From NCBI GenBank assembly GCA_977020255.1, contig CDROCS010002342.1:434001-498000 (forward strand): a stretch of 64,000 nucleotides of DNA, read 5' to 3'. This document shows positions 1-43,560 of the stretch, piece after piece. The notes beneath the pieces were generated by a model that was not told the origin of the DNA, ran no database searches, and saw only the letters and a program-made list of their open reading frames with translations. The stretch comes from Obrimoposthia wandeli (Eukaryota). The position numbers and the translations under genes are program-made. Positions within the stretch are counted from its first letter, which is position 1. Each line of letters begins with the position of its first letter.

Positions 1-946
1 TGTTGAAGGGACCGCTGACCTTTCCGAGGAAGAAGCGGCTGTTGTAGAAGTTAGTGCTGCTGAAATAAATATATTAAAAAAATAAATATATTTTTTAAAA
101 TTATTACCTCTAAGACGTGCTAACATCGATGTAGGCACTCGCGATGGTGGAGGCATATCTGTTGTAGCAGATGACGATTGTAGAACTGTATTTCCTGAAT
201 AAATAATATAAATAAAATATATATAATAAAAATAAAATATATAATTACAATTTACAAAAATAAAAAAAAACCTAATGAAGGCAATCCAAGTTGAGATGGA
301 ACGAAGTCCTCTTCATTGATGGAATCCATCCAGCTGTCGTCCGTTGACTCGATGAAATCGGATTCCTCGATGGTCTCCAACCATGAGTTATCGCTCCACT
401 GAGGCTGCTCCATCTCGAAATCTGACTGGGTGATATTTCGCATCCAGTCATTGTTTGAGAATTGGGTTGCTGGTGCCAACTCCTCAAAATCTTCCTCGGA
501 GATGTCGTTCATCCACTCATTGTTTGACATTTGAGTGGATGGGGCAGCAGCAGAATCAGGAGCCGGGAGAGAAGGACCAATGGCAGGACCATAAACTGGT
601 AGACTGACTGCCACTGTAAATGGAGGTGGAGCTCGAGCGGCCTGCGAATCGCGCACCAATTGGACGATATCCCTCTTCTTGTTGTTGGCCGTGAAACACG
701 ATAGGTGAGCTCGATGTTCACAGAAGAATTCTCGAAACTCCTTCTCCTCAATTGTTCTGCAGAAGGGGCAGACGAAGAACAGAACACCTTGAGACTTGGT
801 CCGGTAGTATGCAGACATTGTCTCCATGCAGGACTCTCCTCCATGCGGAGCCGAAGCACCGCAATACGCAGGGAATAGGTTACACGTAATCTGAAATAAT
901 AAATATTAATAAGGAAATAATAAAAATAAATTCTTACCATAGGCAT
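1..946 (-). CDS. Spliced gene 1: N-terminal Cys/His RING-like Zn-binding region plus four acidic W/F repeats; 3' end outside the window
   Basis: Exons 946-938, 890-272, 194-108 and 59-<1 with GT-AG introns of 47, 77 and 48 nt; phases join in frame. TATATAA at 994-988. Protein MPMITCNLFPAYCGASAPHGGESC...CPFC...CEHRAHLSC...(NNEWMNDISEEDF-type repeat x4). Confidence 0.8.
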
Positions 947-1024
947 TATTTCAAATTGTCGGGGATTTAAATGAAGAAAGTGTTTGCTTATATACTAAAA
1001 TTCATGCACACATGCTCTTTTCCT

Positions 1025-1285
1025 ATTGGATTAAAAAATTGAATTTATTCCTCCACTGAGAAGGATTGTTTATCTGTTATTGGATGAAAAAATAATTTTA
1101 TTCCTCCAATAAAAGAGAAGGATTGTTAATCTATTATAGGTTGAAAAAATATTGTTATTCCTCCAATTAAAAAAAAGGATTATTCATATATTATAGGTTG
1201 AAAAAAAATTTATTCCTCCAATCAAAAGGCTTATTTGTAAATAAATGTAAAATTTTAATAATAAATTCCTCCAATTAGAAGAATT
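1025..1285. repeat. About five imperfect 55-60-bp tandem units (ATTCCTCCA...AAGGATT) upstream of gene 1
   Basis: ATTCCTCCA recurs near 1027, 1080, 1137, 1193 (approx.) and 1265; a partial copy occurs at about 19620. Confidence 0.75.
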
Positions 1286-1287
1286 GT

Positions 1288-1701
1288 TTATCTACATGTC
1301 AAGTAATAATAAGAAAGACTTAAACATTTTTTATATGCGCAATGGTCACCATGATTACGATATGGACAGCAAATATTTTGTGGAATATTTAATAGATGAT
1401 CACGTGAAATATTTAAAGTATTCAACCTCAATTTAGGAAAATATAAAAATAATAATATCTCTTCTCTTCTTTTTTCCTCCACCTTCCTTTTTTCCATTTC
1501 GATTTTCTTGTTCCACTCCACAACCCGACGTCGTTCTGCTAGCCGCCTGTCCTGAATCTTCACCCGACGATTCCACTCGGTCGCGACAGCAGTATATAAA
1601 TTCTGGTTGAGGATCCTCTTTCGTAAATCTCCTTTCTTCTCATTTATTCTTATATTTGCCTCGATCTTCGTCACCAAACTTTGCATTTTAATAAATTCCA
1701 T
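1288..1701 (-). CDS. Gene 2: basic coiled-coil protein with a C-terminal Cys/His cluster, function unknown
   Basis: Open ORF; likely start MEFIK at 1701 with a TATA-like run at 1737-1748; C-terminus CCPYRNHGDHCAYKKC; 3' part duplicated at about 19700-19840. Confidence 0.65.
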   Translation of the reverse strand: MEFIKMQSLVTKIEANIRINEKKGDLRKRILNQNLYTAVATEWNRRVKIQDRRLAERRRVVEWNKKIEMEKRKVEEKRREEILLFLYFPKLRLNTLNISRDHLLNIPQNICCPYRNHGDHCAYKKCLSLSYYYLTCR

Positions 1702-1904
1702 TTTTTTAATTATGAAGATGTTAATAAATTTGAACCTATATATATAAATTAAAGATATTTTTAATCCAATCACAAGCAATTAAAATATATTTATCAAATG
1801 GAAGTTTAATAAATATATAACTACTCATTGCATTTATATTTAATCCTAAATTTTTTAAATTATTCCTTAACAATCCAATCACATTCGAATAAGTTAACTT
1901 TATT

Positions 1905-2080
1905 TTAATAAACTTACGGAGGATATTTTAATATTACTAAATTCTAAAATTTATTTTTTTACCTTGTTATTTTAATAAACTTAAGATGGATATTTTAATA
2001 TTAAATTCTAAAATTTATTTTTAACCTTGTTATTTTAATAAACTTAAGTAGTATATTTTAATATTACTAAATTCTAAAAT
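1905..2080. repeat. AT-rich tandem repeat of about 62 bp, roughly three copies
   Basis: The unit AATAAACTTA...ATATTTTAATATTA...AATTCTAAAAT repeats three times. Confidence 0.7.
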
Positions 2081-2109
2081 AAATAATAATAAAAAGACAA
2101 CACAAGAAA

Positions 2110-4214
2110 CTAATGTTTATGAATTATATTTTTGAAAATCCTTACGAAGTCTTCATTGGGATCGTCGGGGTCGTATTCCCTCCGACTAAGTATTATAGGA
2201 GAAAGCGGTACTGGTTCCTTCTTCTTTGGCCGGCCCGGTTTCTTTTTCGGCTTCACCGGTTGCTGTACAGCAATTGTCCTTCCCTCAGGTTTTGGCAATA
2301 GTTGCCGCAACTTTTTGGGAGGAGGTGCAGCCGATGTTGATGGCCCGGACATAGAAGCAGTAGCCTTCCTCTTCCGCGGAGCTTTCTTCTGTTTCTCCTC
2401 CTTCTCACGCTGAAGCTGGCGTGAGACGGCATCCTGTTGCCCACGCGAATCTGGAAGCATTGCGGGTGTATCCAGTTCCGCTAGGAATTCGTCCAAACCA
2501 GCGTCATCCCAGGCCCTCTTCAAGTTTTGGCTGGTTGTTGGACGAGGAGAAGCAGTATCCTGCAGGCGTTGTTGACTCGAGTGCGGACTAATCTCGATCG
2601 GTGAGACTGGGATCCTCTCATATAAGATAGGCCCGTCGTCCATTGGAGGAGGGAGAATCTCCTGCTGGCCAATCACCGCCTCAGAATAATGGCCAATTGA
2701 GGTTCGAATTTTTCTCGTGCGCCTCGTCTTCTTCACCTCTGCCCGCTTTGTCCTTTTCTTAGGGAAAGGAGTAACTTCTCCACAAGTCTCCTCAATTATC
2801 CAGACAGGTTCCTGCAAATGAAAACAAAAATAAAATTTCAAATAAAATTTTATTTAAATAAAAAAATATTTAAAAAAAAAAATTACCTCAATAATCTTAG
2901 ACGGAAGGTTTTCCTGCCGCTCAATCGTTACTTCACTCGAATTGAGCAGACAGGATTTTGCCTTTCTAAGACACCGTGTCTTCCGTACAGTAAGCTGCCT
3001 CGTTCGCTTATGCGGGAAAGGAGAAATTTTGGCCCACGTCTCCTCAGTTAATATTATTGGTTCCTGCAACAAAAAACATTAATAAAATTTAAACATATAA
3101 ATAATTTACCTCGATGACTGGCAGATTAGCCTGTTTCCCCAACTTGGCCTTCTTCCGATGAACCGTATTGGTTTTGATTCGATGACGTTGAGCTTTCTTA
3201 ACTGCCGCTTGCTTCCTATCAACAGGTAGTCTCCGAGATGCCTCCTCCCAAATTTCCTCCACCAATTCAGCTTCATAAGTGAATAATTAAATAAATTTAC
3301 TAATTTATAATAATATACCTCAATTTTAGCCGAAGTCGGTAGGTATCTCTGATCACTCCTGGGATCATCCTGGCTACATTGACTCGCCAAGTATTGCGGT
3401 TCAATTAGCCTCTCAATCGTGGTCACTGACGGTGCCATATCCAATTGCAGTTTCTGAAAATAAAATTAAAAAACATTTTAAATAAATGATTTCTAACCTC
3501 ATTCGTCGCCTTTATTCTCCTAACAGGACGTATCGGAGATTGTGGCCTTCTGAATGGATCAGGCACTGTATTGTTGGGTATCGGAGTCGGAGTTGTAGAG
3601 GGAGTGAGACCATCCCATTCGTCAGTGAACAGATCCCACTCATCTTCATCCATTTCTGCAACCATGGACTCGTTGGCTCCTGGGGCTCCGATACTTGGCT
3701 GTATCCACTCCTCCTCCCCATCCGACGGAACGTCATCAGTAAACAGCTCCTCGTCTGAGTTTGGTGCCAGTATTATCTCCGGTTGAGACAGCGGGATCAA
3801 TTTCCAGGGGCATTTGATTGCCGCCTCGAAATTGTCAAATAGATTGGATCTCATTGCTGCTACTGCTGAAGTTGCCGGACGATTGGCTTCTGTGTTCAGC
3901 CTGGGAGTACAGTCTTCCCAATTCTCTATCGAATCCTGACTAGTCAGATCGATATATTGGGATCTCTGTACCCCACTTCGCACGCTCATTGGTTCTTCTC
4001 TTGGAGTTGAGCTGGCCAATGGCGGTTCTTCTAGCAACAGTTGGGCTCTTGCTGCTGCTTCTCCTTCGTCTCCTTCACTCACCACCGACGAGTCTTGACT
4101 AAGTAAGTCAATGTACTGCGCCGGTGGCGGCGTTCGCTGATGTACTGGAGAGAGATCTCCATACAGCTGAACCTCCGTCTCTTCATCCAAATCGACGTTA
4201 TTGAAATTTGACAT
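2110..4214 (-). CDS. Spliced gene 3 (possibly two genes or isoforms): acidic SIM-containing N-terminal part plus basic nuclear C-terminal part
   Basis: Exons 4214-3498, 3453-3319, (3270 or 3256)-3110, 3063-2887 and 2811-2110 with 44-75-nt GT-AG introns; TATATAA at 4278-4272. Motifs: YIDLLSQDS and YIDLTSQDS, EMDEDEWDLFTDEW, PRKRKA, PPKKLR, KKKPGRPKKK. The third-exon acceptor is ambiguous. Confidence 0.7.
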
Positions 4215-4598
4215 TCTTGCTTCTTGATTAATGATATTTGATTTATGAAAAAATAATGAAAAGAGGTTTCCTTATATACAAAAATAATAGACTAACCCTC
4301 TTTTGTCGTCCAATGAGAGCGGGTTAATCAAATAATTTATTTGAAAATCAGTAGGCTTTTCTCAATTTTTTAACTATGTTTGAATGCTGGAATGTCATTG
4401 GATAAAACATATTTTATTCGAAAATGTAACTATTTTCTTAAGATTTTCTTAAGATTTTCTTGTATAAGTTTAACGTCCAATGAAAACGTATTATTCAAAG
4501 AATTTATGTTATTTTCTTAAATTTTGTTAATATTTGGATTTAAAATAGTAATATTTTTTTTGACTGTACATGTTTGGATTGGACTGTACACTCATTTT

Positions 4599-4744
4599 AG
4601 GTCAAGTTAAGGTCATTACCTTATGAGGTCATCATCGTGAGGTCAAGGTCATTTAAGGTCATCATGAGGTCAAGGGTACAAAGTATATTAGGTCATCATG
4701 AGGTCAAGATCACTTAAGGTCATGATGACTAATTTGATGACTCA
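4599..4744 (+). promoter_or_regulatory. Array of 10 co-oriented AGGTCA hexamers followed by a TGACTCA (AP-1-like) site
   Basis: AGGTCA counted at 4599, 4610, 4626, 4640, 4646, 4656, 4667, 4690, 4701 and 4717; TGACTCA at 4738. Lies between the TIR and the gene 3 promoter. Confidence 0.7.
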
Positions 4745-4849
4745 TCAAATAAAAATGCAAATTATTTCGAATTTATGTAGTTGATTATTTAAATTTTTTT
4801 GTGACCCTATATATGTATCTTTCTTATAAGCTGTATCTTTCGCGAGCCT

Positions 4850-5126
4850 GTATTTATTACTCGTTGATCCACTGCGGGCCCGTAGGGCACGCTTTGGCCA
4901 TTTTTTTGGCCTCTCAGGACCTTAATCAAAATTTTGGGAGCATTATGAGATTTTAAAATTTACAGGGTGTTAAATGGAGTTTTTTTTTTTTTTTTGAGTT
5001 TTTGAGATGGGGAGGGTAGAAAATTTTTCTACACACCTACACGAAATTTCACTCCACACACATGCACGGTTTTAAAGGACAGTAGGGGGGAGGGGGGTGT
5101 GGATTAGACCGGATTAGACCTCTAAT
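4850..5126. repeat. Maverick terminal inverted repeat, right-end orientation
   Basis: Shares GGCCTCTCAGG, GGGAGCA.TATGAGATTTT, AAATTTCACTCCACACACATGCAC.GTTTT.AAGGACAGT and GTGGATTAGACCGGA with 58500-58705. Confidence 0.75.
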
Positions 5127-5345
5127 GATAGAGTATCGGCTTTCAAAGTGCTAGTTGATTCATAATAATTCATTTCACCATCTCTTGTAAAATAACAGTT
5201 GTATTACTATAAGTAAATTATGTCAATGCAACTTCCCAAACGCCTTGAGGTTCTATTGCATATTTCCATTCAACAATAAAGTTCGATGCAGTATTAACAT
5301 ATTGAGTGTTTGGACAACTTTTACATGGTAATACAATATATAAAT

Positions 5346-12100: not shown

Positions 12101-13550
12101 TTTATATCCAGGTAATTATAGGGAAGATGCTCTTGAATTGAGTTTAAAACAACTGTTCTTTCCAAATGTTTAAATACTTGAAAAAAGGAGCTGATTATAT
12201 GTGCAGAAAATCAAGAAATAAAAATGTAAATGTTGAAAATAAATTCGAGTTAACAAGTTTAAAATTTTCAACAATCCCTCATTATATTTGTATTTGCCAA
12301 TTTAATATATAATACGAAAAAACGTGCTTGCTTGATTATATAAGGTTTACTTATTTTGATTATAATGCGTGACAATTTTATTTTATTTTAATATATTTCA
12401 AATAATATTGACATATAATATTCATTGAAACAATATTCTGAAATAAAACCTTTTAATCAAATCCAATAAATTACTTTTTTAGGACTTACGAAAAATAACA
12501 TTTTTGACTTGAAGTTTTTCTAAATTACACAGTACAGTACATCACACATGCTTACCGTAGGCTCACCTGCCGCGATTCGACCATTTCAGTCATAGTAAAC
12601 GTTGAGGTCCGGGACTTTGGCTTCACATGGATTTTGTCAACCAACAGTGACTAGCGTGGCTCAACTCTGGCAGAGTCCGCGAGTGGTTTCCGTCTAGATG
12701 GAGGCGTGTGAGCGAGAGTGTGAAGTACCTCAAGATGCGCCGGCAGATTTCGGTTTTCTTATTTAGAGATGAGAATGGCATATCGTATGTGCATCGAGAG
12801 TCTGACCGGACCTGGCAGCTTCAGTAACGTAAAACTGGTGGCCAGGCAATAACATGGGATTGTTGCGAGGAGCATTCGATTTGCTAGCTGGTGACTGTGT
12901 GTGGTCCTGTATCAAGTGAGGTGCAGAGATCTGGCACCATCATCAATCTTGCAGTTACTTCGGTGCCAACATTAAGACTCTCTTATGTCTTTATTTTTCA
13001 CTCTTATATCATTCATTCTGTTGTATATTTCTTTATTATTGACTCTGCTAGCCCTAGGTCAACCTTTCGTGGTTTGCCGTATTTGAATGTTGTTTGCTTA
13101 AATATAGGCTTCGATTTTTATGAGTAAGTTTAGGTTCTCCGTTGATTTCCGCATCAATATTCATGAAATTGTCTTCTTTAATGATTCCAGGGCATCGTGA
13201 TTACCAGGCTCTGTCAATATCCCTAGTTCTACTGTTCTTAAATTTGTTATCGTTCTATTCCTTCTGAGCAATCAAAAGTACAAAAGCATTTCTAAATTTT
13301 TTATTCTTAATTTTTTATTTATGGAAAATATGTAAAACATAAATCGAAATTCTTAGTCTATAAATCAATAGCTGCCAATGTTTGAAAATTGGAACATTGA
13401 CTTCAAGTTAGATTTTTGTGATTAAAAAGTCATTTGAGCACCATAAAGTGCTACAAAATATTGCTGGGCGTATCAAAATGTAATGATGTTTTAATTATAA
13501 AAAATATTATATTTTACAAAGATTTATACACTTTTTTATTTAATAATATA

Positions 13551-13720
13551 CTGTGCATGTGTGTGGAGTGAAATTTCGTATATGTGTGTCTCCATTCCAC
13601 CCAAAGGTGAAGGGGGGTCACCCCAAACACATTTTTTTAAATTTTACTTCGAAAATTACCACGAATCTCGAAAGTGGTTAGAGAAGACCACGGGAATCCA
13701 TATTGGACCCGGTGATATTT
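13551..13720 (-). repeat. Truncated Maverick TIR fragment, left-end orientation
   Basis: ACTGTGCATGTGTGTGGAGTGAAATTTCG is the reverse complement of the motif at about 5041-5067 and 58640-58668. Confidence 0.7.
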
Positions 13721-16559
13721 CAAATAATAGTGCATTTAATAAATTACATTTCTTCTATTTTTATATTTTTCTTTTATTGTGGACTTAACTAATCTTTTTT
13801 AATCATTAAGTGATTATTTAAATTTATTTATTTTATACTAATAAATAATCTTCGCATTATGACATCAATATTCGACCTCTAATTCACATTATTGCACAGT
13901 TTGAAATTGTAAATATTGCATCCAAAAGCAAAAGTATTATCTACAAAAATTATTTTGAAAATTAATGACAGATTGATAATTATATTAGAACAGTAACAAA
14001 AGTTCATCAATTTCATTTAACATTTTGTTAACTTGAAGAAGTTAATTGAGAGGTTAATACTTCCCAGCTACATTATTACATTTTCAACGGAACTAGCGCT
14101 CTATTGTTGGGATGTAAGCACCATAATCTCCAAGTGCAGCTGCAGTTAAACGACAAAAGCGGAGACCAGTATAATTTTCAGAAGCATTTATTCAAAGAAA
14201 TATATTGATCTAAAATTTTCTGTGTTTTGCGTTTTTTGATGATTCAGAAAATTTAACTAAACGATTATAATCAAATAAAATTTATATTCATATTGATCTC
14301 ACTGTGCTGGTTGTACATTAATTACTGAGGCTTGTGAATAGTATAGGATAAAATTCGCTACCCAAGACGGGCAAATTTCACAACATTTATGAATTATTTT
14401 TCATCTTCAAGCTTGTCATTTATATTTTCAAACTCGTTTACACATAAATATTGCGATGTTTGATTAGATATTATTTTTTGATCCTATTTACAAACAACAG
14501 TGTCTTCTATTTTTCTATTTTTAAAATTGTTTATGTACTCTAAATATACAGTTTGTTGTAAGCAAACCCTTATACAATTGCAGTATTCGCGAATATTGGA
14601 TTCAAAATGTATTTGAAATTAAATTTGAAATCAAGACGAGAATTATGGGTTGAAAATATTTCGTCAGTATCGTCATTTTAAAAGATAACAGAATACGGTA
14701 CAAATGGTACAGAACAAAACGACAAAATGGACAAGAGACAAAATGCATTCTACAGGATTGCTGAGCCAGATGCACTAGTATATGTCGAAGTTCAATTGAA
14801 ACGGTAACCTTTTCTGATCCCTTAATACAACAATTATATCAGTTATGGTAATGTGTGTTACATGGTCGATTTTCCTCTTTACCGATGCATCACATGTATC
14901 AGTTGTTGCGTCATGTAGCCTAAAGAATCATTTAGGCAATTAAATTTTCTCTTGTTCTGGCATTGTAGTCTCTTTTATAATTAGATATGACTATTAGTTA
15001 TCCTTAATCATTGGATTTATTTTAGAGTTCATTGGTAATTGTCAATGAGATTCTTTGTGATATTACTTCTTATAGTAAGAACAATTCATTAAATTTTTAA
15101 AATTTATCATTAAAATTTATCATTATTTTCAAAATATTTCTTTCTATTTCATCAATTATGAAATGTTAAGACTGAAAATTGGAGCTGAAAAGATATCAAA
15201 CCAAAATAGCGTGAGAAAGAAGATTGCATATGGATGTAATTAGGTAGGCTGAAATGATTCTTAGGATCCGGCTGTTCAAATAAAATATTGATGCAGATGA
15301 ACAAACTAAAATAGCTTATTTGCGCACTTCAAGTTATTTTTTTCCCACTGGCTTAGCTACTAACTGTCGTTTAGATAAAATATCAAAGATGTTTTAAATA
15401 GTTCTGTATATAAATTTAATATTGCAAACTAAAAAGCTTGAGTTTACCCTCAGTTTACCCGCACACTCGAGTAAAATGAACTATTTTTGTAGTAAAAAAT
15501 TCATTAGGTTCCGAAAAAAAATCCATATGGCTCTTATGTAAACACTTTTGTGTGCCATATAATGGGATTGTGGCTGCTTTGAACGGGTAATGTTTATCAC
15601 TGATATAAAGATGGTTTCATATGTAGGATTATCATTTTTATTTCATAAAAATAGCATAAAAGAGTACTAGGGATATTAATTTGTGGTAAACAGGAAAACC
15701 AAGGTACAACAATCACAATGACGATAATTAAATACCTACACCGCCTAAAGTAGAATGGTTTGACCTACGTTTTCTAAGTGCTGTCAACAGGACAATAAGT
15801 TCTAGTTGTTGAGAAATAATTTCATAATAATATTTCATAGATATTTTTAAAGCAAAGTTGTTCAAAAAATTCAATTAATTATAAACATGATTTACATTGA
15901 ACCAAAAAAGAGTACAAAGTACATAGATGGGAAAAAGAAAACAATGCTAATTAAAGCAGTCTAAAATTATATATGTACTCTTTAAATAGAACAATTGGTA
16001 ACCATATTCATAGTTGATATTGAATTTCAAACGCAATTTTTGTCTGCAACAGACAATACGATCGGTACAATTGTACAACTCCGCATCTACTTCACGTAAT
16101 ATTCTAACGTCCACACCAAGAAACCCTCTTTTAACACACGTATATTTATATTAGTTATTATAACAGCTGTAAGTGATATAGTAAGACTATTTGATGATTT
16201 TCATAGAATTTAAAAATAGAAGAACACAAAAATGTGACATTGTTTTTTTTATGATCTTCATATATTTGAGATTAAATATCACAATTCATGACATCAGGTA
16301 ACTTAAAACAACAGCAAGTAACTGGGAGAATAAGGTATTCAGGAGACTAAGAGAAGCAGCAGTCTAAAAATAGACGAAATTGTAGTCTATACTAGGCCAG
16401 GCTGTGTGAAGTTCTGCGATTATAAAAGAAAGCTACCAGAAGTAGAAAATTAGAAGAACGACAATCAATGAATACATTCACAAACAACAAACGAGAACAA
16501 CAAATCCGCAGTCTCTCTTAGGAGATTGTCTATGCAGAAGACAAACCAAAACAAACAAC

Positions 16560-16946
16560 GATTTACTTCTTTTTTGGAAATGCATCAACATCTATTTCTC
16601 TTCCATAGTCATCTAGAAATGCTGCATCGGCTCCTCGGATATAAAATTCGTTCTTGTTGAAAGTAAAATTTGGAACTACATTTTCAACTTTCTAATTTAG
16701 ATATTGAAAATCTGGTTTTTGAATATTTTATAGATTATAGCTGAACTTTCTTCTTTCAATTGTCACAGGATTTACTAAAGCAATCAGTTGAGCCTTCTTC
16801 AAGAATCTGACTTTGTATTTGAAATATTGTTTCACTTCTTCATACATATCCTTATCCGATTCTTCAAATATTTCTAAATCTTCATCGCCGCTTAATAATC
16901 GTTGGCTATCGTCTATCATTGATAATTTTCTTTGATATGAATGCAT
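16560..16946 (-). pseudogene. Maverick ORF X, unknown function; second copy at about 46570-46960 (+)
   Basis: MHSYQRKLS...NIQKPDFQYLN*KVENVVPNFTFNKNEFYIRGADAAFLDDY conserved in both copies. Confidence 0.55.
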
Positions 16947-17194
16947 TTATTGTGATTTGTCCTCCAACGGTGCATTCTTTTATACTAATTTGTAACAAAG
17001 ACATGAATCTCATTGGTTAATATAACTAAAGCATTGAATTTGATTTGACTAAATCCATATTAAAAATAAAAATTTATTGGAAGAAATATATCATCCAATT
17101 ATAATAGGTTTTCAAGATAATTACAAGAAATGTGCAATAAAAAGCAGGTTCAGACATATATAAAGAAGAATTTACAGAATACAATTTTAGTCTG

Positions 17195-17596
17195 ATGAAA
17201 CTCGTAAATATAAATGATAAAGGTAGAATAGAAAATGATGTTTCGTACTTACAATTAAATGAATGGAAGCCGGGACAATAAGTGGAAAAGTTTGACAATT
17301 TCACAGTTGTTATTTTTCCTAAAGGTTAGTTTTTTATTATTTTTTTATTTTCATATTGAATTCTTTTAGTAAATTGTCGTGTTATGGGATGCAAAAAACC
17401 TTTGCTTGAGATCAATTTACCATTTGGAATTCGAATCACTGCAATACAATCAATCACGATTTCGGCTAATCTTGGGAAACAAATAAATCTTTTTAAAATT
17501 GCAGAGTAAATGAAAGAAGAATGCATGTTTGAACCAGAAATTTTCCTGCTCTCAGATATTTAAAGTTTACTAGCTATCTTTTCTATAAACAAACCT
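17195..17596 (+). pseudogene. TATA-binding-protein-like gene (one 45-nt intron) within the Maverick, disrupted
   Basis: MKLVNINDKG...VVIFPK|(intron 17325-17369)|VNCRVMGCK...IQSITISANLGKQINLFKIAE*MKEECMFEPEIF matches the TBP repeat motifs NIVxSANL, EPExFPxL and IFxSGK. Confidence 0.7.
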
Positions 17597-17926
17597 GTTT
17601 AAATCTATTGTTTCAAATGAATAATACTATAAATAAAAACAATGAATTGGATCGTCTTGTCGACGATGTTTTTACAGGAAAAAATAAGTGTAAACAATTT
17701 TTATCATAATTAAAAAAATAATGATATAACAAGAGATAACATTGAAATATTGGTTAGATCACACGTTATTCGAGAATTTAGATATCGAATACAAATAAAT
17801 AAAAATATAGTCAAATATTCATTAATTAATTTTTGTATTTCATCTACAGAAGCTATGGTATTATACTTTTCTATAAGGAAACTTCTATAATAATATAAAC
17901 AATATTAAAATGAAAGAGTATATGTA

Positions 17927-18242
17927 ATGGAGCTAAATAATAATGCTGTATTTCAAATAGTTGGTCCCAGTGGAAGTGGAAAGACACATTTCGTATGTAA
18001 ATTGTTGCAAAATGAATATTTTTTTCAATTCTAGTTTCAATTTTTTTAAAATCTTAGAGATCAAACAGTTGTAGATTTCGTAGCCCTACAGGCATTTCAC
18101 TAAAAAATGAACTTTCTAGTTGATTCATTCTATGATTCTGCTAAACAAGGGTTTATATTTATTGACTTTACACAAGCTTGCCCAAATGATTTACGTGTTT
18201 TAACAAACATATTTAATTCTAAGGAAGTAACTGTTTATAAAT
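17927..18242 (+). pseudogene. Maverick FtsK/A32-like packaging ATPase, internally deleted
   Basis: Walker A GPSGSGKT; C-terminal FIFIDFTQACPNDLRVLTNIF; central part missing. Confidence 0.8.
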
Positions 18243-18455
18243 AAATAGTAAACAATTATAAAAAATCAATTTACAATGCCTTTTAAGAAGTTGATAGTGA
18301 AAAGTAAACGTAAAGTAAAAGCCAAGCATAAGAAATCAAAAAAAAAATATTAAGAAAAAAGAAGTGAATAAATTAATTAAATCTGTAGTTCGAAATAAAA
18401 GAAAACTTAAATGGCTTCGAATATAAACAATTTTCAAATTGAAATTTTTTTTAAA

Positions 18456-18790
18456 TGAAGAAAATACAAAGAAGCATACCCTATTTTAAAGCTTTGATCA
18501 AAGTGGCTTCTTATAAGAGAATATCCATCTTTTGTTGTAGATGATTTATTGGAAGTTTTGTATAAAATAGTTTTGGGTCGACTAAAAATTGTAAAACGGA
18601 AAAATGTATTAAAGAAATATAGAAAAACTCTTTTAGAAATTGCTAATGTAAAAAGTAAAAAAAGGAAACGAAATATTATTCTTAAACAGAATGTTGGTTT
18701 CATAGAAGCTGTTATTCCAGTTGTTGCTTCAATTATCAGTAGTAACACGTACATAAACAATTATTTCAAAAATCAGCTACAGATATGGGT
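18456..18790 (+). pseudogene. Maverick PW-like small basic protein, frameshifted; tiny Lys-rich ORF just upstream at about 18277
   Basis: LKKYRKTLLEIA...KRKRNIILKQNVGFIEAVIPVVASII resembles the QxGGF-type motif; homolog GFIGAIIPVVASII at about 45530-45580 (-). Confidence 0.6.
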
Positions 18791-18842
18791 ACTAACCCTT
18801 CTTTACCTAAACTTAAATTTTCTTTCTATTCAAATTGTTGTA

Positions 18843-19090
18843 ATGGAGAAGATATGGTTCAATCCAAAAGATTCAATTGGCTACACAAGAGTTTCAAAAT
18901 AGGTAAAAAGAACAAAACATAATTACAAGAAAACGCAGAAATGGCTGAGCGATCAGTTAGTCTACAGTCTGAACAAGCCGATTAGAAAAAGGTTTCCAAC
19001 TAGAGCTTACAAAACAAGCGGTCCTAGTAATTTATGGCAAATGGATTTGATGGAGATGATTCCATATTCTTCTATGAATAAGGAATACCG
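18843..19090 (+). pseudogene. Maverick integrase N-terminal fragment
   Basis: YSLNKPIRKRFPTRAYKTSGPSNLWQMDLMEM; breaks off into the gene 1 copy. Confidence 0.85.
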
Positions 19091-19099
19091 AAAAATCAT

Positions 19100-19580
19100 A
19101 AGAAAAAATACCTGATGAAGCCGATTCAACTGTAGCTGGTTGGAAGTCTTCTTCATTGACAGTATCCATCCAGCTGTCGTCTGTTAACTCGACGAAATTG
19201 GATTCTTCAATGTCGTCCAACCAGCCGTTGTCGCTCCACTGAGACGGCTCCATCTCGAAATCTGACTGTGTGATATTTTCCATCCAGTGATTGTTCGAGA
19301 AATTGGTTGCTGTCGCCAAGTTATCAAAGTCTTCTTGGGCGATGACGTTTATTCACTCATTGTTAGTCAGTTGAGTGGATGAGACAGCTTCGGAATCGAG
19401 AGACGGGAAGGAAGGACCAACCTCATGACTGTAAACATTTTGAATGACTTCCGTTGCAACTGGAACAGGAACTGGAGCTGGAACGACAATCAAAGCACGC
19501 ACCAATTGAACGATATTCTTCTTGTTGTTGTCCGTGAAACAGGAGAAGTGAGCTCGATGTTCATTTTATGCACACATGTT
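19100..19580 (-). pseudogene. Diverged, truncated copy of gene 1
   Basis: EHRAHFSCF and repeats NNHWMENITQSDF, DNGWLDDIEESNF, DDSWMDTVNEEDF align to 252-827. Confidence 0.85.
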
Positions 19581-21725
19581 CATTTCTTATTGAATGAAAA
19601 TATTAATTTTTATTGAATTTATTCCTCCAATTAAAAGGATTGTTAATTATTGGTTATTGGTTGAAAATGTTATATTTTATATATTGTATATCTCCAATTA
19701 TAAGTATTGTTTATCTACATGGCAAGTAATAGTAAGATAGACTTATACACTTTTTATATGTGCAATGTTCACCATGATAGATAGATGATCACGTGAAATA
19801 TTTAAGGTATTCAATCTCAATTTTGGAAAATATTTTTTAAAGTCTTATACTTTTTACCATACATTTCATCTAAAACATAAAAAAAACAGTTTTCAATATC
19901 AAAATTAGATTCAATAGTATTACACAAAGGCTTATTTCCTTCTCTTCATTTTAATAAATGAAAATTATTAGTCAGATATAAGTTTGTAATTTCTTCTTAT
20001 AATCTAAAGTTCTAAACGGAATATCTACATGAAATATGAAATGCAAAGGATGGAAAACGTCGCATATATCGATAATACATAATTGTTACTCCCAAGCTTT
20101 TCAAAGCCAAACAGGATCAAATTCCAAATTTTACCACACCCAATTGCAATGATCACAAATCAAACTCCGACTTTGAAGCAGCTTTTGAAATTGAACTGTG
20201 AACTGAGCTCTTTACAGATTCTGCAAGAAAAATTGAATTAATCTGTTATTTGGAATTAAAGTTTGCAGAAGATTGAATATAAATTTAATACTAAATTATT
20301 GGCTTTGACCTGTGATTAAATCGCTAAAAAAACTATTCATATATTTTACTTTCTAAAATTTATAAACAATTGTGAAATAAATGGAATAATTTTATAGTAA
20401 ATATTTTATAATTACTTATAAAGTCAATTTTATAACTGACTATCTATTTGATTATTTTGTCCCCAGATGTACTTTGCAAAAGTTAATAAATATTTTGAAG
20501 ATGTTTCAAATACATTCTAAATAAAATCTTTTCTCCTAACCTAACATATCAACATCTGCAAAATTTGAAATATTTTAAAAATGGAATAAAAGTAACTTAA
20601 TTAATTGTTTTTAAGATATAGACAGTAATTAATATTAAGTAAAGGGTTCATCGGCTCTTGAAATACAAACATTCCTTACCTCATATTTATTGAATTGTAA
20701 TCTAGTATAAATATTGTTGTTTAATCTTTTCAAAACCGTTATGTAATCAGAAACTAGAAATATCCTACTTGCAATAATTTTTTAATGAATAAGTATTTAA
20801 CATATATCATATAATTTGTGTTGTGGAATCTAAATTTTGAATTATATCTACGGTAGAAAACATAACTGGTGACCACACCTAAATAATTGTAGTGACGAGA
20901 AATAAAGGAAAGAAGAATCTTCTCGAAACAATGCAAAAATAGCAAAAAATTACGTTTAGTACAGCACAAGAAAATATTATGGAACAAGTTCAACGAAAGG
21001 TGAAAAACGGATAAAATATATAGGAGAGTGGGTCGACGAAAATGAGACTAATATCATGGATGCATTTGATTTGCTGTTGTCTGATGAGGCTGAATTATTA
21101 TATAAAGATGCCAGTAAAAAGTTAAATTCAGAAATTGAAGTCAAAAAATGGTTTGAAGAAAAGTTTTTAAAAAATAAATTCATATTTGACAACACTTGCG
21201 AACTCGCAAAGGTGAATCAAGTAGAAGGCGAACGTTTATCCGTTTATCGAATGTTTAGAGTTAGAAAACTGGTTGAGGCAATGATGGAAAATAATGTTAG
21301 CAAAGATGACCTGACTGACACTAAAGTTTATTAAAGATAGAGTAGGAAGTGAAAAACTGAAGGAGTAGTTCTTATAAAATTTGCAGATGCTAAATGAAAA
21401 AATAGAGGCATTGGCAAAGTTTTATTGCAAAATGGAATAATTGAATCCAAGATTGCACAAGTTCAGAATACATATGCAAACACATTAAAAAGAGAATACA
21501 ACTGTCCAGACTACCGTCCTAATTTTTCAAACAATACGAAGAAATACCCGTTATCGGTAACAGTAGATCACGAAGAAAGAAGTTATGTTCATGGAAAAAA
21601 ATATACATAAATATGGACGCAAAAAAACAAAATAAAGGACACCAAAGCGGAGGGTTTTATTAAAACAAGTAGCTTAAAAATATAACTTAGCCAAGGGACT
21701 GCCTGACACAAAAGTGAAAAATGTC

Positions 21726-24434
21726 AGTAGGTAGAAGGATGGAGTCTAGATCACTTAACCCCCCCCCCTTGTGCGCACACAATGTTAAAGGATTTTACAA
21801 CATAGGGTGTCACACCATAAGGGTATATGTTGCCTCACCATAGTGATGTCACACCATAAAGGTATATGTTGACTCACCATAAGGGTGTCACACCAAAAGG
21901 GTGTCACACCATAAGGGTGTCTTGCCACACCATAAGGGTCTGGCTCAGAAAGGTTAAGATACGGGCGAGGGAGGGTGAAGGGTCAAGTGATCTAATATCC
22001 ACCCTTCTTTTGGTCAACCACTAAAGGGTTGTTGTCGTCCATAATTCAAAGGGTCAGACAGAGTTTTGACTTGAAGGTTTTAAGGTATGGTCATGACCGT
22101 CTATGGTTGGCCATCACATCTAAAGGATTGTGGTCGTCCATAGATCAAAGGTTGGGATCAGTTTTGACTTGAAGGTTTGAAGGTATAATTAAGGTCAACT
22201 ATGGTTGTCCATCATATCTAAAGGGTTGTGGTTGTCCATAAATCAAAGGGTCTCACTCAGTTTTGACTTGAAGGTTTGAAGGTTGATTAAGGTCAACTAT
22301 GGTTGGCCATCACATCTAAAGGGTCATGGACGTCCATAAATCAAAGGGTCGGGCTAAAAACAAAATCAAGTTTTAAATATCAAGGTTTTAGTACATGGTC
22401 GGAATCATCTTTAGAAGGCAAATTCCCCCATAAAGTATGGTCGTCCATAAATCAAAGGGTCGGGCTAAAGACAAAATCAAGTTTTAATTGTCAAGGTTTG
22501 AATACATGGTTGTAATCATCTTTAGAGGACGAATTCATCCATATAGGTATGGTCGGCCATAGATGAAGGGTTAAAAAAGTTGGAATTTCATAGTTTTAAG
22601 TACATGGTTGTATTCGTCAACATATTACGAGTTTAATCATGTAAAGATTTTATGGTCGTTCACAAGGTAAGGTTTAGATTTGGCATAATTTAAGGAATTA
22701 TATAGTAATTAATCAATTATTCTATGTGAAAGTTAAAGTCCACTCTTATCAGTTAAGGAATGTGGTACTTAATAACACACACACTATTATATGTAAAAAT
22801 GTAGGCTAAAGTTCACTCTTATCAGTTAAGGAATGTATTATGTAATAATACACACATTATTCTATGTGAAAATTTAGATCAAAGTTTTTTCCAAGCTTAT
22901 GCATCTAAAGAATTATGATACAATTTCTTTAAATAACTTAAATTATATATTAACATAAAAATAAAATAAGAAAGATCTTCTTTCCGATTCAACGACTAAG
23001 TTACAGCGGAATTAATAGAAGGAAAAAAACTCTAAGTTTGAGGCTATGAATGAAAATTAGTAAAATATTAATGTATTTGAATATATTTGAATGATAGTTT
23101 GAATAAATGAGAGTTAGATTGAATGTAAGTGAATACAAGTATGAATGCAAATGAATGCAAATACAAGTAAGAGTCTTAGCAAGTGAATGTAATTTTTAAA
23201 AATAAGAGTGTCGAGAGTATGATTAAATGTGAGTATAATTTAGACTATAAGTAAATTAAAATATGAGTTTTCGTAAGCAACTATAAGAAGCAGTGATACT
23301 GAGTTATGTTAAAAGTTAGAATGACTAAGTTACAGCAATATTAATAGAAAACAATACTATATTTTACGGTATAAGTGAAAATTAGTAAAATATTAATGTA
23401 TTTGGATGCTACTTAGAATGATTGTAAATAAATACAAGTATGAATGCAAGGGAATGCAAATACAAGTAAGAGTCTTACCAAGTTAATGTAATTTAAAAAT
23501 AAGAGTGTCGATAGTATGATTGAATGAAAGTGTTATTTAGACTATAAGTAAATTAAAATAGAGTTTTCGTATGAATAAAGTTTAGTTACAGTTACAGTTA
23601 GATTAATAACAAGTATGAAACTATAAGAAGCAGTGATACTGAATTATGTTAAAAGTTAGAATAACTAAGTTACAGCGAAATTAATAGAAAACAACACTAC
23701 GCTTTAAATTCAAAACCTCTTTTTTGGTAAAGGTTAATCAATCATTTAATAACATTCCTTAATTAATTATTTTTTTTTTAAAACTGATAAATTTTAATTT
23801 TTTATTTTTAAAGGACTTGGTTAAAGAAATGTTTATTTATATAATTTGAGTATTAACATTATTCGATTTAAACTTTAAATATTCGAAATTATCTTTAACA
23901 CATTAAAAAAACTTCAATTTTTTAAAATTTGTATCGAATATTGAAAATTCATTTGCAAACACATGTTATTCAAAGCTACTGAAAGCTTCGTCTATAAATT
24001 CGAATATCAAATCTTTAATTATATTGTTTTATATGCAAATAAATCAAATTATGTACATATTCGATTATCAACTTAGTATTTTTATTTATTATTCGACTTT
24101 CTAAAATAATTAAAATGTCTTGTAAGAACACATAAAATGAATTAAGGGTGTCACACCATAAGGGTATATGTTGCCTCACCATAGTGATGTCACACCATAA
24201 AGGTATATGTTGACTCACCATAAGGGTGTATTGCCACACCATAAGGGTCTGGATCAGAAAGGTTAAGATACGGGGGAGGGAGGGTGAATGGTCAAGTGAT
24301 CTAGTCTCCACCCTTCTTTTGGTCAACCACTAAAGGGTTGTGGTCGTCCAAAATTCAAAGGGTCAGGCAGAGTTTTGTGCACACAAAGGGGGGTGGGGGG
24401 GTTAAGTGATCTAGACTCCATCCTTCTACATACT
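21726..24434. mobile_element. Non-autonomous mini-Maverick A (2.7 kb, repeat-filled)
   Basis: About 50-bp TIRs AGTAGGTAGAAGGATGGAGTCTAGATCACTTAACCCC (right end reverse complement AGTATGTAG...); perfect 6-bp TSD AATGTC at 21720-21725 and 24435-24440. Confidence 0.9.
22010..23700. repeat. Tandem arrays inside mini-Maverick A: about 100 bp x3, 120 bp x2, 70 bp x2 and 330 bp x2
   Basis: GTCCATAAATCAAAGGGTC-type units at 22010-22620; GACTAAGTTACAGC-type anchors near 22995, 23323 and 23663. Confidence 0.8.
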
Positions 24435-30903: not shown

Positions 30904-33900
30904 TTACTTTTCGAATTCGTTCTCTACAAGCTTTAAGGGCGGAATATATCTGACGGAACGGAATGACGACGGGTTGGCTCCATAGACACTGGCGGTGTTG
31001 ATGGACGTGTTGTCGACAATTACTGACCCTTGTCCAGCATACCGTTCCATGGCGGCAAGGGTGTGGTTGCTACCATTGTGGTGCGGTGTTGCACTGAATT
31101 CTGGCTTCTTAGACCACTCTGTAACCCTGCCTTGTTGCTGGTTGTGGGCGTACTGCTTCTTGACGAGCGGGACTGTCTGAACCACCTTGTTGTTGAGTAG
31201 CTCCATGCGGTCTGTGGCCACTACCGTGGATGACCCAATCAGCGGGCTATGGTCTCTGTGGTGCCCACCCGGTGAGGTCGTAGCAGGCCGCTGGCCGGTG
31301 TTGTGAGGCCGTGCGTATGTCTCCGACATTGTGGTTTGTGGCAAAGGACTCCCGCATTGCAGCTGATCCGACTTGCGCAGATAGTCGTACATGTCAAAGC
31401 TGTTGATGGTGTCGAATGGAGTCTTCGGATCGAGCATGTGTGGCTGCTGTCGGTGATTGAGATAGGTACCAGACGAGTTAATGCAGTTTACCTTGGCCTC
31501 GTTCCGGCGGTAGAAGGACAAGATGAAGTAGACGAGCACACAGATGATGATCATCACTGCAAAAATCATGAGACCGAGCGCGATGTTGAACCACGTTTCT
31601 GACGACTTCATGGACGCCCTGTCGCTGTTTCTGTTGCTGCTATCGATCACTGGAGACACTAAGGGTCGCTGAGTGTCGATATTGGTGCAGTTGTGCGGTA
31701 ATGACTCTACTGCATAATTAATACCGATTAATATAATAAAGGATTCAACAAATCGAAATTTAGAAATAAGATAGATTTAAAAATGCAAAATTAATTTTAA
31801 GCAGTCGAAACTAAACTAGGTCATTAATTAGAAAAGTCAATTTCAATACCTTGATTTCTATTATATCCTCGTTTTAAAGTGTAATTTTTTTAAAAAAATA
31901 ATTATTTTGCCCTAAGACATTTTTACAAAAATAAAAATTAAAATAATGGTCAAATGTAAAGTTATTAAATCATTTTACATATAATGGTTCCACTCAATGA
32001 CTGAGGATATTAATTTCTATCAAAAGTCCTAACTAATAAATTATATTAAAAACAAGTTTGGGTATCGAAAATGGTGAGGTTATATAATTATTGTACTTCA
32101 ATTGAAGTTCATATGAGCATAAGCATCATAAGTCGAGGTTAAAACTGTATTGGTGTATTTTAAATTTAAAAAACCAATACTCATAATCACCTAGGCACAT
32201 CATCCAGGATTTTATACTAATAATCCATAGATTGGATTATTATAATTAATAATAACCATAATAATAATAACAAACTACTTATTATAATAATAACTATACG
32301 TTATACATTTATTAGTATTAGCACTATCACCCATCATCACCACTTTTATCACTACAATTACAATTACAATATATATATATATATATCAATATCAATCACT
32401 ATCATCAACTTAAAATATTTTCACAAGTTTTAGGCGATCCCTTTGCAAGCATCCGTTTTCTTTTATATTCAAAGCTTCACAAAATAATTCTTTTTCTACA
32501 GTGAATGGCTATATATTCATCAAAAGAAAAAAATCAACAAAAACTTTGCCTACATTTATTAAGGTTAAAAAGTTAAGGAGACATTTTTTTAAAATTGAAT
32601 ATATTAAATTAATTTGTTTTAAAATCAACTACCAATAAATTAACTATAGTTTATTTCAAATGAATAATTAAAAGTATAAACTAAAGTTTATTTACATTTT
32701 CAAAAATGTTATATGAAAATATTTTATAATATTTTATAATTCTGATTAACAAAGATATTTATACAGGAAACCCTAAAATAGTGAAATTTAATAGACAGAG
32801 CAAATCGTTTCATTACATCGGGGTTTCGCTGCATAAAGTATTTTCATAATACAGTGAAACTCTGATATAACGAATCTAGATATACCATAACGATTTACTC
32901 GGTTCAAGAAACTATTGCAACTATATGCAACAAATTATAAAAAGATTGCTTTATTCCTAAAACGAATCGCGGACAATGCAATTGTCGACTTGGGAAACAA
33001 AGATTAAAATTGATGCTGAAATATCAGCTCATCTAGACATTCTATTAAATAAGAATCGAGGACTAAATTCCGTGTTATGTCCTGATCCTACGCTTCACAT
33101 TACACAAGAAATTGTAGCAATTTTGGCTGTCAATTAATTCAGTTATGGGACATTTTCATCTGACATGACCATTTTGACCGATAAGAGATGAAGACTAGGC
33201 GTAGAAAGCTTTAAACGACTGGTCATGTTGCAATTTAACAAGTATTGCAGTGATGACCAATGATGTTTCTTTATATAAAGAACTTTATAGTTAATTTTAT
33301 ATGAATATGAATGTTTTTAATGTCATTTTTCTAATATATTGGTTAATCAAAATAAGTCAGCTTGAATAAATTGTCCAAATGAGCACTCATTATGCTAGAA
33401 TATATACGTATATTTATGATAAAAAATTATAAAATGGTCACTGATCATTGAACATATCGCTAAAATATTCCATTGGAGTTTTACCACTCGAGGTCATTTT
33501 AGTAATTCTATCTAGAAAACAACATTATAGAGATTGTATATTCATTTTATACGAACCTCAAAATATTTAATTTTAAACCTTTAATTTAACTAATAAAAGC
33601 CAAGCAAAAACAATAAAATCAAACTATATGATTTTGTTTTCTATTTTAATTTTTCTTTATTAGGGGTAAGTGGGGGATTACCGTGCAGCTGGTAATACCG
33701 TATAGTGAAGTATAGGCCAGATTATGACGAGAAAACACTAACTTGTGTGCGTATGTTATCGCTTTTACAATTATGATTTGTTTTACTGAGGTATTATTTT
33801 AAATTGTCACGTGTTTCATTTTAAAGCGCAGCTTTCAAATATTTTGTAAGTTTCCATGTAAGTTCAAATCATTATTAATTTAAAGTTTTTAACATTTTAC

Positions 33901-42560: not shown

Positions 42561-43094
42561 TTACAGGAAATAAAATATCAAATATTGTGTACCACTGAGT
42601 TATGCTGATAGCATACAAATATATGTGGCATCATTTTACAAGAATTAAAGGAAATAGAAAATTATATTATTTAATAAAACGTATATTTATTAGACATTTT
42701 AAATTAAATGATAGATGAACATAATTCAATAATTTTGAATCACAAAATGCCGTAAATTTATTAATGCAGTCCAAAAGCCATATATGGTTGGTAACAATGA
42801 CATATATGCAACCGTTTCCGTCAAAATCTGGGATTTATGCTTGATAAACAAAAACGAAAACGAATTCTCAATTTAACAATATTCGTATTATAGCCAGTTA
42901 AGCAGTGGATGGACTCTAGTTAAAATTCATGATGTTAACTTTATTTTAACAAAGTTCACTATTATGATTTATTTATTTTTATTTATTTATTATTCCTTCA
43001 TTATTAACGTACATAACAGTGATAACCTTTGCCTCCCATAATAAGGCTCTTATATTTTGGGAAAGTAATTGTCAAAATCTTCTAGAGTATATGC

Positions 43095-43560
43095 TGTTAT
43101 TTGAAGTTAGACATTTATCTTTTAGCTGGTGTGTTTGAGTCCTTTCGTGTAAAATCTTTAGTAAAAGATGGGCTAGATCCCATGCATTTCTTTAGTTTAC
43201 CTGGTCTTTCATGGGCAAAGGCAATAAAAACTCTTAATATTAATATCGAGTTACTGCAAGATCCCGCGATGTATCAAATGTATGATTATGGTATACGCAG
43301 TGGAAGGAATTTTGTCAACAAACATCATGTTTTCAAAGATCAATCCACAGAGATTCTGTACATCGACATTAATAATTTGTATGGGTGGGCACTTACTCAA
43401 CCTCTACCTCATGTCAAGTTTAAGTGGGTTTATGATGAGGAAGAGTTGAATAAGTAGATGACAGATTTGGCTACTGTTGATACAGTTTCATCAAACGTCG
43501 GCTATTTGGTTGAGGTTGATTTAAAAATCCTTCCCAATGTTGAGGATAAATTGGATGATC
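43095..43560 (+). pseudogene. polB: Maverick protein-primed family B DNA polymerase fragment
   Basis: LLAGVFESFR, GLDPMHFFSLPGLSW, YGIRSG, YIDINNLYGWALTQPLP, GYLVEVDL. Confidence 0.88.

Follow-up and report, generated by a model that had tools for sequence, protein, structure and literature searches.

A possible two-step transcription programme in a Maverick element of Obrimoposthia wandeli that encodes a short TBP-like protein

Introduction

The Mavericks (Polintons) described in the accessible parts of PMC8097293 and 10.1101/2024.03.18.585575 are characterised by their size, terminal inverted repeats (TIRs), a 6-bp target-site duplication (TSD), a pPolB polymerase, an rve integrase, a packaging ATPase and capsid and protease genes, with accessory genes at both ends and an extended pPolB N-terminus. 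The element studied here shares these features, its capsid and protease genes being putative, and its left end opens a 64,000-nucleotide stretch of the Obrimoposthia wandeli genome (assembly GCA_977020255.1, contig CDROCS010002342.1, positions 434,001 to 498,000 of the forward strand). This whole stretch is called the window, and coordinates count from its first nucleotide. Three features of the present element go unmentioned in the same accessible descriptions: a gene for a TATA-binding protein (TBP), a Zn-binding and acidic extension before the TP region of pPolB, and a promoter word shared by the putative late genes. Intact vertebrate Mavericks carry no introns according to the available part of PMC8097293, whereas short introns are predicted here in gene 3, pPolB, the TBP gene and the protease gene on the basis of splice signals, phase and GC content. 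Introners in dinoflagellate elements are described in the accessible text of PMC11957031.

Upstream of PolB, adintoviruses carry E1A-like 'Oncoid' open reading frames (ORFs), and the same report uses 'TBP' in a figure legend and MAEL labels on its maps (Starrett et al. 2021, PMC8502044). In its accessible text, no element is named for the TBP label and no promoter or mechanism is described. The viral TBP ORF24 of KSHV (Kaposi's sarcoma-associated herpesvirus) binds the C-terminal domain (CTD) of RNA polymerase II (Pol II) directly and needs five more viral activators (PMC7498053, available part). The accessible parts of 10.1101/2024.03.25.586562 and PMC10748475 held no relevant mention, and that of 10.1101/697771 held legend labels only. 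The openly searchable literature yielded no account of how a Maverick TBP works, of an ATAAAC promoter or of a spliced pPolB.

A preliminary description of the window had proposed a regulatory cascade, unrecognised from described Mavericks, in which an early region like adenovirus E1/E4 and an element-encoded TBP act together. The claim of novelty was partly wrong, as the Oncoid ORFs and the 'TBP' label in the accessible part of PMC8502044 show. The cascade itself is plausible and gained indirect support from a second promoter word absent from that description. We slightly favour a two-step transcription programme in this high-copy, intron-bearing Maverick, as judged from sequence comparisons.

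The window insertion and its Maverick family

1-5121, minus strand: left end of the Maverick insertion; the element runs about 11.7 kb on beyond the left edge of the window
5028-5121, minus strand: left TIR, 96% identical over 86 nt to the right end about 16.7 kb away
5122-5127: 6-bp TSD; the same hexamer flanks the right end of the insertion in locus L024

The insertion is about 16.8 kb long, with TIRs at both ends and a 6-bp TSD. Comparison of termini moved its end from 5126, the position given in the preliminary description, to 5121, the next six bases (5122-5127) being the TSD; the outermost bases of the left TIR are altered in the window copy. Of 5232 first-look candidates for further family members, 40 were scored, and the window copy was examined together with nine of the best-scoring others. 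TIRs were present in 9/10 copies, and the TSD was perfect in eight of the nine copies with both ends and matched at 5/6 bases in the remaining one.

Starting from the left TIR, the gene order is an AGGTCA array, gene 3, a gene for a basic protein, a MAEL-like gene and gene 1/pPolB. These are followed, facing gene 1/pPolB, by protease, major capsid, orf128, minor capsid, integrase, a pX-like ORF, ATPase, orf113 and TBP, and at the right end by orf158 and orf145. Pfam profile searches of the element proteins identified pPolB (PF03175, 105 bits, cut-off 25.8), the integrase (rve, 50 bits, cut-off 32.6; chromo, 22 bits, under its cut-off of 25.1) and the packaging ATPase (Pox_A32, 28.5 bits, cut-off 22.8). 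The same search gave no match for the major and minor capsid proteins and the cysteine protease, and no family for the unknown ORFs of the element. The capsid and protease labels are tentative, given by motifs, size and conserved order in relatives. No Rfam match was found in 1-5200. By its TIRs, TSD, pPolB, integrase and ATPase, the element is a Maverick/Polinton.

Gene 1, gene 3 and the TBP gene lay between the same TIRs in eight of the ten copies, namely the window insertion and 7/9 others. Of the two exceptions, one copy had lost the TBP gene by deletion and one was interrupted, its right end not being reached. The proposal that the left-end genes and the TBP gene belong to one Maverick family was thus confirmed. 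Nested and rearranged copies are common in this genome, as a chance joining of modules from unrelated families would suppose. However, the same order between TIRs and TSDs in 8/10 copies refutes such a joining, gene 1 is also still collinear with a TBP remnant in 2/7 older-subfamily loci, and we give this alternative a negligible probability.

The protease gene (locus L031) apparently begins with a 5-nt micro-exon followed by a short AT-rich intron. With this intron added, at least nine introns are predicted per element (loci L031 for the protease, L028 for TBP).

A short TBP-like protein

For the TBP-like gene named in the preliminary description, the open exon 2 of other copies matched PF00352 with 45.8 bits against a cut-off of 22.9, and also solved TBPs, one of them at E 6.6e-14. 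The predicted protein, here called mini-TBP, is encoded by two exons, begins at the TBP core and has about 150 aa in total. Like cellular TBP and TRF2/TLF, it has the predicted TBP fold, a C-terminal repeat with EPExFP and both Phe, and in the N-terminal repeat the Asn and the second Phe. It differs from cellular TBP in the loss of the N-lobe helices, in the replacement of one Phe by Pro, in Asn and Ser at DNA-facing positions and in its separate branch. It therefore does not have two complete TBP repeats with four intercalating Phe, the N-lobe helices being gone and three Phe remaining.

Short TBPs form a wide family, with 76 representatives at E up to 1e-10, most of them of the short type. 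From 162 confirmed metagenomic TBP loci, 80 were kept; a core Maverick gene was present in 40/80, and in 20/23 of those of at least 4 kb. Of the IMG/VR scans with TBP, one returned nothing and another returned one distant locus, without Maverick genes. In a tree of 131 sequences, all 13 TBPs in Maverick context lay on one side of a branch with SH-aLRT 100, with longer forms near the base of the Maverick branch and three host sequences outside it. The structural model of an intronless relative (P0002, pLDDT 96) showed N-lobe strands only and no helix, and all of its Foldseek hits listed at E<1e-3 are TBP chains.

In all 43 relatives compared, three intercalating Phe and the second stirrup Glu are unchanged; Pro takes the place of the fourth Phe in 40/43, and the stirrup Glu residues are kept in 42 and 43. 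The DNA-facing positions hold Asn in 43/43, Ser in 42/43 and Cys in 41/43. Two of the altered positions are also changed in the altered-specificity yeast TBP mutant. From the profile, alignment and model comparisons, we conclude that mini-TBP is a TBP homologue with the predicted TBP fold and that TBP is lineage-wide in these Mavericks. Two points weigh on the other side: the tree came from a quick search with a midpoint root, and TBP dN/dS (ratio of nonsynonymous to synonymous rates) against decayed copies ranged from 0.23 to 1.41, which is uninformative.

A second high-copy Maverick family (family 2; L124-L131 on contigs C280, C600, C815 and C749) has its own mini-TBP, 54-57% identical to exon 2. 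It also has ATAAAC before its late genes, an IAP gene (BIR and RING) and, by eye, a ubiquitin-like stretch ending in LRGG just before the pPolB Zn domain, which gave no Pfam match. The host carries two adjacent TBP genes on contig C238 and two near-identical intronless divergent TBP-like genes (L132, L133, L134; C60, C1092).

Two classes of promoter words

The starts of the element genes were compared for upstream words. ATAAAC was found upstream of 79/82 starts of ten genes (ATPase, orf113, pX-like, integrase, both capsids, orf128, protease, MAEL-like and orf145, the putative late class), and a canonical TATA upstream of none. A canonical TATA preceded 35/36 starts of gene 3, gene 2, gene 1/pPolB, TBP and orf158. 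Both counts are from near-identical copies. The metagenomic relatives served as a held-out test, in which removal of similar regions reduced the late starts from 94 to 81 and the TBP starts from 59 to 43. At the late starts, ATAAAC was present in the sense direction in 73/81 and in the antisense direction in one, against a shuffled expectation of 6.7, and a canonical TATA was present in 12/81 against 8.6 expected. The TBP starts had ATAAAC in 4/43 and a canonical TATA in 20/43 (6.0 expected).

The word has the profile YATAAACR and lies mostly 31-46 bp from the ATG, within a range of 31-128 bp; an A follows in 63/78 sites, making ATAAACA its commonest form. It is outside the upstream ORF at 21/28 ATPase starts. 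The MAEL-like gene keeps ATAAAC both at the left end here and after the protease gene in relatives. Elements as far apart as 33-38% ATPase identity still have both the word and the TBP. Taken together, these counts demonstrate two classes of predicted promoters, canonical TATA at the left-end genes and TBP, and ATAAAC at the virion, ATPase and integrase genes.

Several observations weigh against this division and against mini-TBP as reader of the word. At 7/28 ATPase starts, the word falls within coding sequence. Gene 1/pPolB also has ATAAAC further upstream in 6/7 copies, the distant relative L104 has ATAAAC 60 bp before pPolB, and family 2 has overlapping TATA and ATAAAC words before pPolB. 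A canonical TATA was seen at only the 20/43 TBP starts given above, and five starts of orf158 homologues have neither word. Because the loci are related and many come from shared sample series, the Fisher p of 1e-19 is too favourable. No TBP-less Maverick emerged from IMG/VR scans that used the capsid protein, an alignment of capsids or one of ATPases, and ATAAAC may be general to Mavericks.

Host factors offer another explanation, which we regard as unlikely. ATAAAC would then be a weak TATA variant read by host TBP, or a site for a forkhead protein, whose consensus RYAAAYA fits the word, and mini-TBP would serve as a TFIIB decoy, shut off host TATA promoters or bend DNA at origins. Wild-type TBP was crystallised on a C(-25) TATA variant (PDB 1qn3, accessible record), so host TBP may read ATAAAC. 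ATAAACA is the commonest form of the word, its distance from the ATG is spread over 31-128 bp, and mini-TBP is without one of the four intercalating Phe; TRF2, in which a Phe is lost, does not bind TATA (PMC10005294, available part). On the other hand, the strand bias of 73 to 1 and the peak at 31-46 bp fit a core promoter better than an enhancer site. The near-invariance of the altered DNA-facing residues in the 43 relatives, and the joint persistence of word and TBP across diverged ATPases, also speak against host factors.

A putative two-step programme

Recognition of YATAAACR by mini-TBP and an early/late timing of the two classes have, in our estimate, somewhat better than even chances on the sequence patterns above. 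In the first step, host Pol II and host TBP would start at the canonical TATA boxes, with probable help from the AGGTCA/AP-1-like array near the terminus, and give gene 3, the basic protein, spliced pPolB, orf158 and mini-TBP. In the second step, mini-TBP would bind YATAAACR, which lies some 30-100 bp ahead of the genes for ATPase, pX-like protein, integrase, capsid, protease and MAEL-like protein, and would use the intact stirrup of its C-lobe to recruit host TFIIB and Pol II. Without the N-lobe helices, mini-TBP would escape control of the TFIID type.

The arrangement resembles, at sequence level, the vTBP/TATT late system of beta- and gammaherpesviruses, which likewise combines a TBP mimic encoded by the virus with canonical TATA at early genes, a non-canonical TATA-like word at those for structural proteins, and host Pol II. 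In contrast to the herpesvirus vTBP, mini-TBP has no CTD-binding N-terminal domain; it is no more than a core of about 150 aa in which the TFIIB stirrup is retained, and its putative word is YATAAACR. We propose that it acts in the manner of the vTBP/TATT switch but does not belong to that system. In adenoviruses, late genes rely on host TBP.

A lineage-wide version, to which we give slightly less than an even chance, would be that animal Mavericks run a virus-type early/late programme within about 17 kb by a one-protein switch. A host nuclear-receptor/AP-1 signal at the terminus would start the canonical-TATA genes, including that of an altered-specificity mini-TBP, which alone would redirect host Pol II to the YATAAACR promoters of the virion and integrase genes. 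If true, a single Maverick protein would be the independent counterpart of the late pre-initiation complex of herpesviruses, and a virion stage in which integrase is packaged would follow. Maverick particles had not been observed as of PMC8097293 (accessible part). A dedicated TBP and a word limited to the genes for virion, packaging and integrase would directly attest a temporal programme, and bear on whether the Mavericks of animals are true viruses that run a lytic programme. A natural TBP that lacks the N-lobe helices and differs in its DNA contacts would, moreover, show which TBP surfaces are needed for Pol II initiation.

The subterminal array

4599-4722, plus strand: AGGTCA half-site array, 10 exact sites, all on one strand
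4732-4750: 19-bp palindrome around TGACTCA; TGA[CG]TCA in 8/10 copies

The array was described correctly before. The window holds 27 AGGTCA sites against 20.4 expected, and 10 of them fall within 124 bp, where about 0.04 would be expected. All ten copies have 9-10 sites, and two older-subfamily loci have 9 and 5. Family-2 and metagenomic loci, of which only a few reach a terminus, showed no comparable cluster. We take AGGTCA to be a nuclear-receptor-like half-site and TGACTCA to be AP-1-like. The array includes a TCAAGGTCA site at 4643-4651, and TCAAGGTCA is the ERR consensus.

The array may be the trigger of the first step, or it may be a replication or packaging signal. Under a reading that we consider doubtful, array and subterminal repeats would be such signals or expanded tandem repeats instead of an enhancer, and the left-end genes would be chromatin or replication accessories. 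This would suit the position of the array 400-520 bp from the terminus, its build of repeated units and the lack of such a cluster in the family-2 and metagenomic loci mentioned above; another TIR element of the window also has its own subterminal repeats. Exact hexamers at 9-10 sites in 10/10 copies and also in the older subfamily, and the place of the array beside the AP-1-like palindrome, with a TATA box 320 bp downstream, weigh against this reading.

Gene 1 as the predicted 5′ end of pPolB

946-938, 890-272, 194-108 and 59 onward past the window edge, minus strand: predicted pPolB exons 1-4 ('gene 1')
988-994, minus strand: canonical TATA box of gene 1/pPolB, kept in 7/7 copies scored
1058-1228: 57-bp tandem repeats upstream of the gene 1/pPolB promoter, with one ATAAAC at 1073

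Gene 1, with its Zn-binding domain, acidic-aromatic repeats, Ser/Thr/Ala linker and CPFC motif, had been read as a gene of its own. In the predicted chain, exons of 9, 619 and 87 nt lead into the long pPolB frame through GT-AG introns of 47, 77 and 48 nt, and the splice phases match in most copies. GC content is 0.44-0.53 in the exons and 0.05-0.13 in the introns, and no AATAAA occurs between 1049 and 1. The pPolB frame has 221 codons without Met in 4/6 copies scored, the other two frames being cut short. A phase-1 donor after exon 2 is present in 7/7 older copies; its absence from the young copy L027 counts against the chain.

In family 2, pPolB has a homologous Zn domain (E 1e-9) with eight Cys/His kept, followed by an acidic stretch, and this domain lies in one open frame with the TP region, without introns, in 4/4 copies. 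Two distant relatives have C2H2-type fingers at the start of unspliced pPolB ORFs, one of them above the cut-off. The conserved ligands of the Zn domain are C,C,H,C and C,C,H,H. The domain had no Pfam match, and no gene 1 homologue was found among longer proteins, in what is a weak test. To judge by the in-phase splice chain and the Zn-pPolB fusion of family 2, what was called gene 1 most probably comprises the first exons of pPolB; as a prediction from sequence, we hold a spliced N-terminal Zn/acidic extension to be very likely.

A nuclear-receptor DNA-binding domain was considered for the gene 1 Zn domain (570-890) and rejected: the match to ERR-gamma reached only E 0.59 and was absent with the family-2 homologue, and the ligands are not C4-C4. 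A single-sequence model of the family-2 pPolB N-terminus had pLDDT 30 and was not used.

If the intron after exon 2 were retained, a stop would follow exon 2, and a Gly-Gly motif, presumably a protease site, precedes the TP region in both families. A short gene 1 product may thus arise by intron retention or cleavage. The spliced, TATA-driven genes near the terminus and the 9-nt first coding exon of the polymerase gene are reminiscent of adenovirus E1A/E4 and E2B. In adenovirus E2B, a short exon lying upstream supplies the first residues of pol and pTP.

Gene 1 resembles the Oncoid ORFs in its position upstream of PolB; of their paired-CXXC feature, it has one CxxC plus other Cys/His. It differs from them in having no LxCxE or CR1 in the exons scanned and in looking like the 5′ exons of PolB itself. 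Some published Oncoid ORFs may likewise be unrecognised pPolB 5′ exons, and ORF-only annotation of Maverick ends can make false regulatory genes out of polymerase exons.

Genes 2 and 3 and a proposed E1/E4-like early region

4214-3498, 3453-3319, 3274-3110, 3063-2887 and 2811-2110, minus strand: gene 3, five predicted exons, about 630 aa
4272-4278, minus strand: canonical TATA box of gene 3, kept in 7/8 copies scored
1459-1701, minus strand: 5′ part of gene 2, a basic coiled-coil gene truncated by a deletion, with a TATA-like word at 1746
1291-1443, minus strand: what is left of the 3′ end of a MAEL/DEDD-like gene (162 aa), joined to gene 2 by the deletion

Gene 3 has an acidic N-terminus with SUMO-interacting-motif (SIM)-like words (two YIDL in exon 1) and a basic, AT-hook-like C-terminus (PGRPK in exon 5). 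All five exons are phase-0, with GC content of 0.45-0.51 against 0.09-0.14 in the introns; the acceptor of intron 2 is non-canonical in the window copy. Its dN/dS against the sister subfamily is 0.22 over 91 codons and 0.28 over 231. No Pfam family and no homologue (exon 1 searched) was found. Gene 2 (1288-1701) is, in the window copy, a chimera left by a deletion of about 540 bp. Between subfamilies, dN/dS is 0.11 for the basic coiled-coil gene, 0.26 for the MAEL-like gene and 0.30 for gene 1 exon 2. The MAEL-like gene has homologues in 17/81 related loci and an Atlas lead to Maelstrom at 0.87.

The motif patterns reported before are present (acidic-aromatic, SIM, Zn, AT-hook-like and basic runs like nuclear localisation signals (NLSs) in the left-end genes), although low in information; SIM, NLS and AT-hook are assigned by consensus patterns. 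A nuclear regulatory role would fit the composition of gene 3, on these low-information motifs, and it is doubtful whether gene 3 or gene 2 acts on transcription. The reported TATA words also exist, 48 bp before the ATG of gene 1 (TATATAA at 994), 45 bp before that of gene 2 and 64 bp before that of gene 3 (TATATAA at 4278). Shuffled sequence had such a word in the corresponding interval in 4.4%, 12.7% and 5.5% of 2000 trials, respectively, so each word is weak alone (4-13%), though all three lie 45-64 bp before the ATG.

An early region of the E1/E4 type would have the acidic-aromatic proteins of genes 1 and 3 bind element or host TBP and activate element promoters; in a variant, the Zn/acidic domain cleaved from a pPolB polyprotein, or the intron-retention product, is the activator. 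Several features are compatible with it: canonical TATA boxes together with the AGGTCA array; dN/dS of 0.11-0.30 between subfamilies for genes 1 to 3, which indicates purifying selection; the acidic-aromatic, SIM-like, NLS-like and GRP motifs; the stop after exon 2 and the Gly-Gly motif described above; and the typical place of Oncoid ORFs upstream of PolB (PMC8502044, accessible part). However, gene 1 is predicted to be spliced in frame into pPolB, and its family-2 counterpart is fused to pPolB. No LxCxE or CR1 was found in the window exons scanned (pattern scan, with gene 3 exon 3 inspected by eye), profile and homologue searches gave no similarity of the left-end genes to E1A or E4, and gene 3 exon 1 and gene 1 had no homologue. 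Genes 1 to 3 were also unmatched in 81 loci around related TBPs, most of which are short and few of which reach the left end. The N-lobe helix that mini-TBP has lost is the surface used by TFIIA, TAF1 and acidic activators, which argues against contact between gene 1 and the element TBP. We therefore consider this part of the preliminary description improbable and prefer the two-step programme with mini-TBP as the switch.

Older decayed copies

16542-19100, plus strand: decayed right-hand module of an older copy, with orf158 (minus strand), TBP-like gene, orf113, ATPase, pX-like ORF and integrase 5′ end
17195-17600, plus strand: broken two-exon TBP-like gene, with stops in both exons and a frameshift
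19103-19850, minus strand: homologue of gene 1 exon 2, remnant of the 57-bp repeats and 3′ end of the MAEL-like gene, all from this older copy
43086-47580: third decayed copy; a plus-strand fragment of pPolB is followed by minus-strand remnants of the minor capsid, integrase, pX-like and TBP-like genes, and by orf158 and orf145

The 16.5-19.9 kb segment had been cited as a physical link between a gene 1 homologue and the TBP module. The two do adjoin, but the join was made by an internal deletion of about 8 kb in this decayed copy, in which the integrase 5′ end abuts the intron after gene 1 exon 2; in intact copies, TBP module and gene 1 are about 10 kb apart. The gene 1 homologue has 78% DNA identity, and its best matches elsewhere are 83-87% identical. 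ATAAAC occurs in the module at 17585, 17895, 18423 and 18753.

orf158 and orf145 are weakly alike (24-28%; L028:6107-7118, window 16542-16946 and 46572-47580). orf158 gave a weak Atlas lead to proteins of nucleocytoplasmic large DNA viruses, with one cluster having Pox_I3 in 12% of members; a single-stranded-DNA-binding protein is no more than a weak lead, with a low recognition score. Mavericks are also nested in each other, a copy on contig C2453 (near 183106 and 200400) being inserted in the integrase gene of another copy, and family-2 copies adjoin remnants of the window family, family 1 (L126). Decayed remnants resembling the family terminus lie at 58468-58703 and 13550-13589.

Other features of the window

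A 2.7-kb non-coding element at 21726-24434 has 43-bp Maverick-type TIRs and internal repeats of 39, 98 and 111 bp, and is probably a non-autonomous derivative of another family. A long terminal repeat (LTR) retrotransposon remnant occupies 49784-56279, with LTRs of about 500 bp that are 92% alike and a 1130-bp internal segment in near-identical tandem copies; from its motifs, we take it to be BEL/Pao-like. On the minus strand, the open frame at 30904-31776 is GC-rich, codes for 290 aa including a predicted hydrophobic segment, and looks like a host exon.

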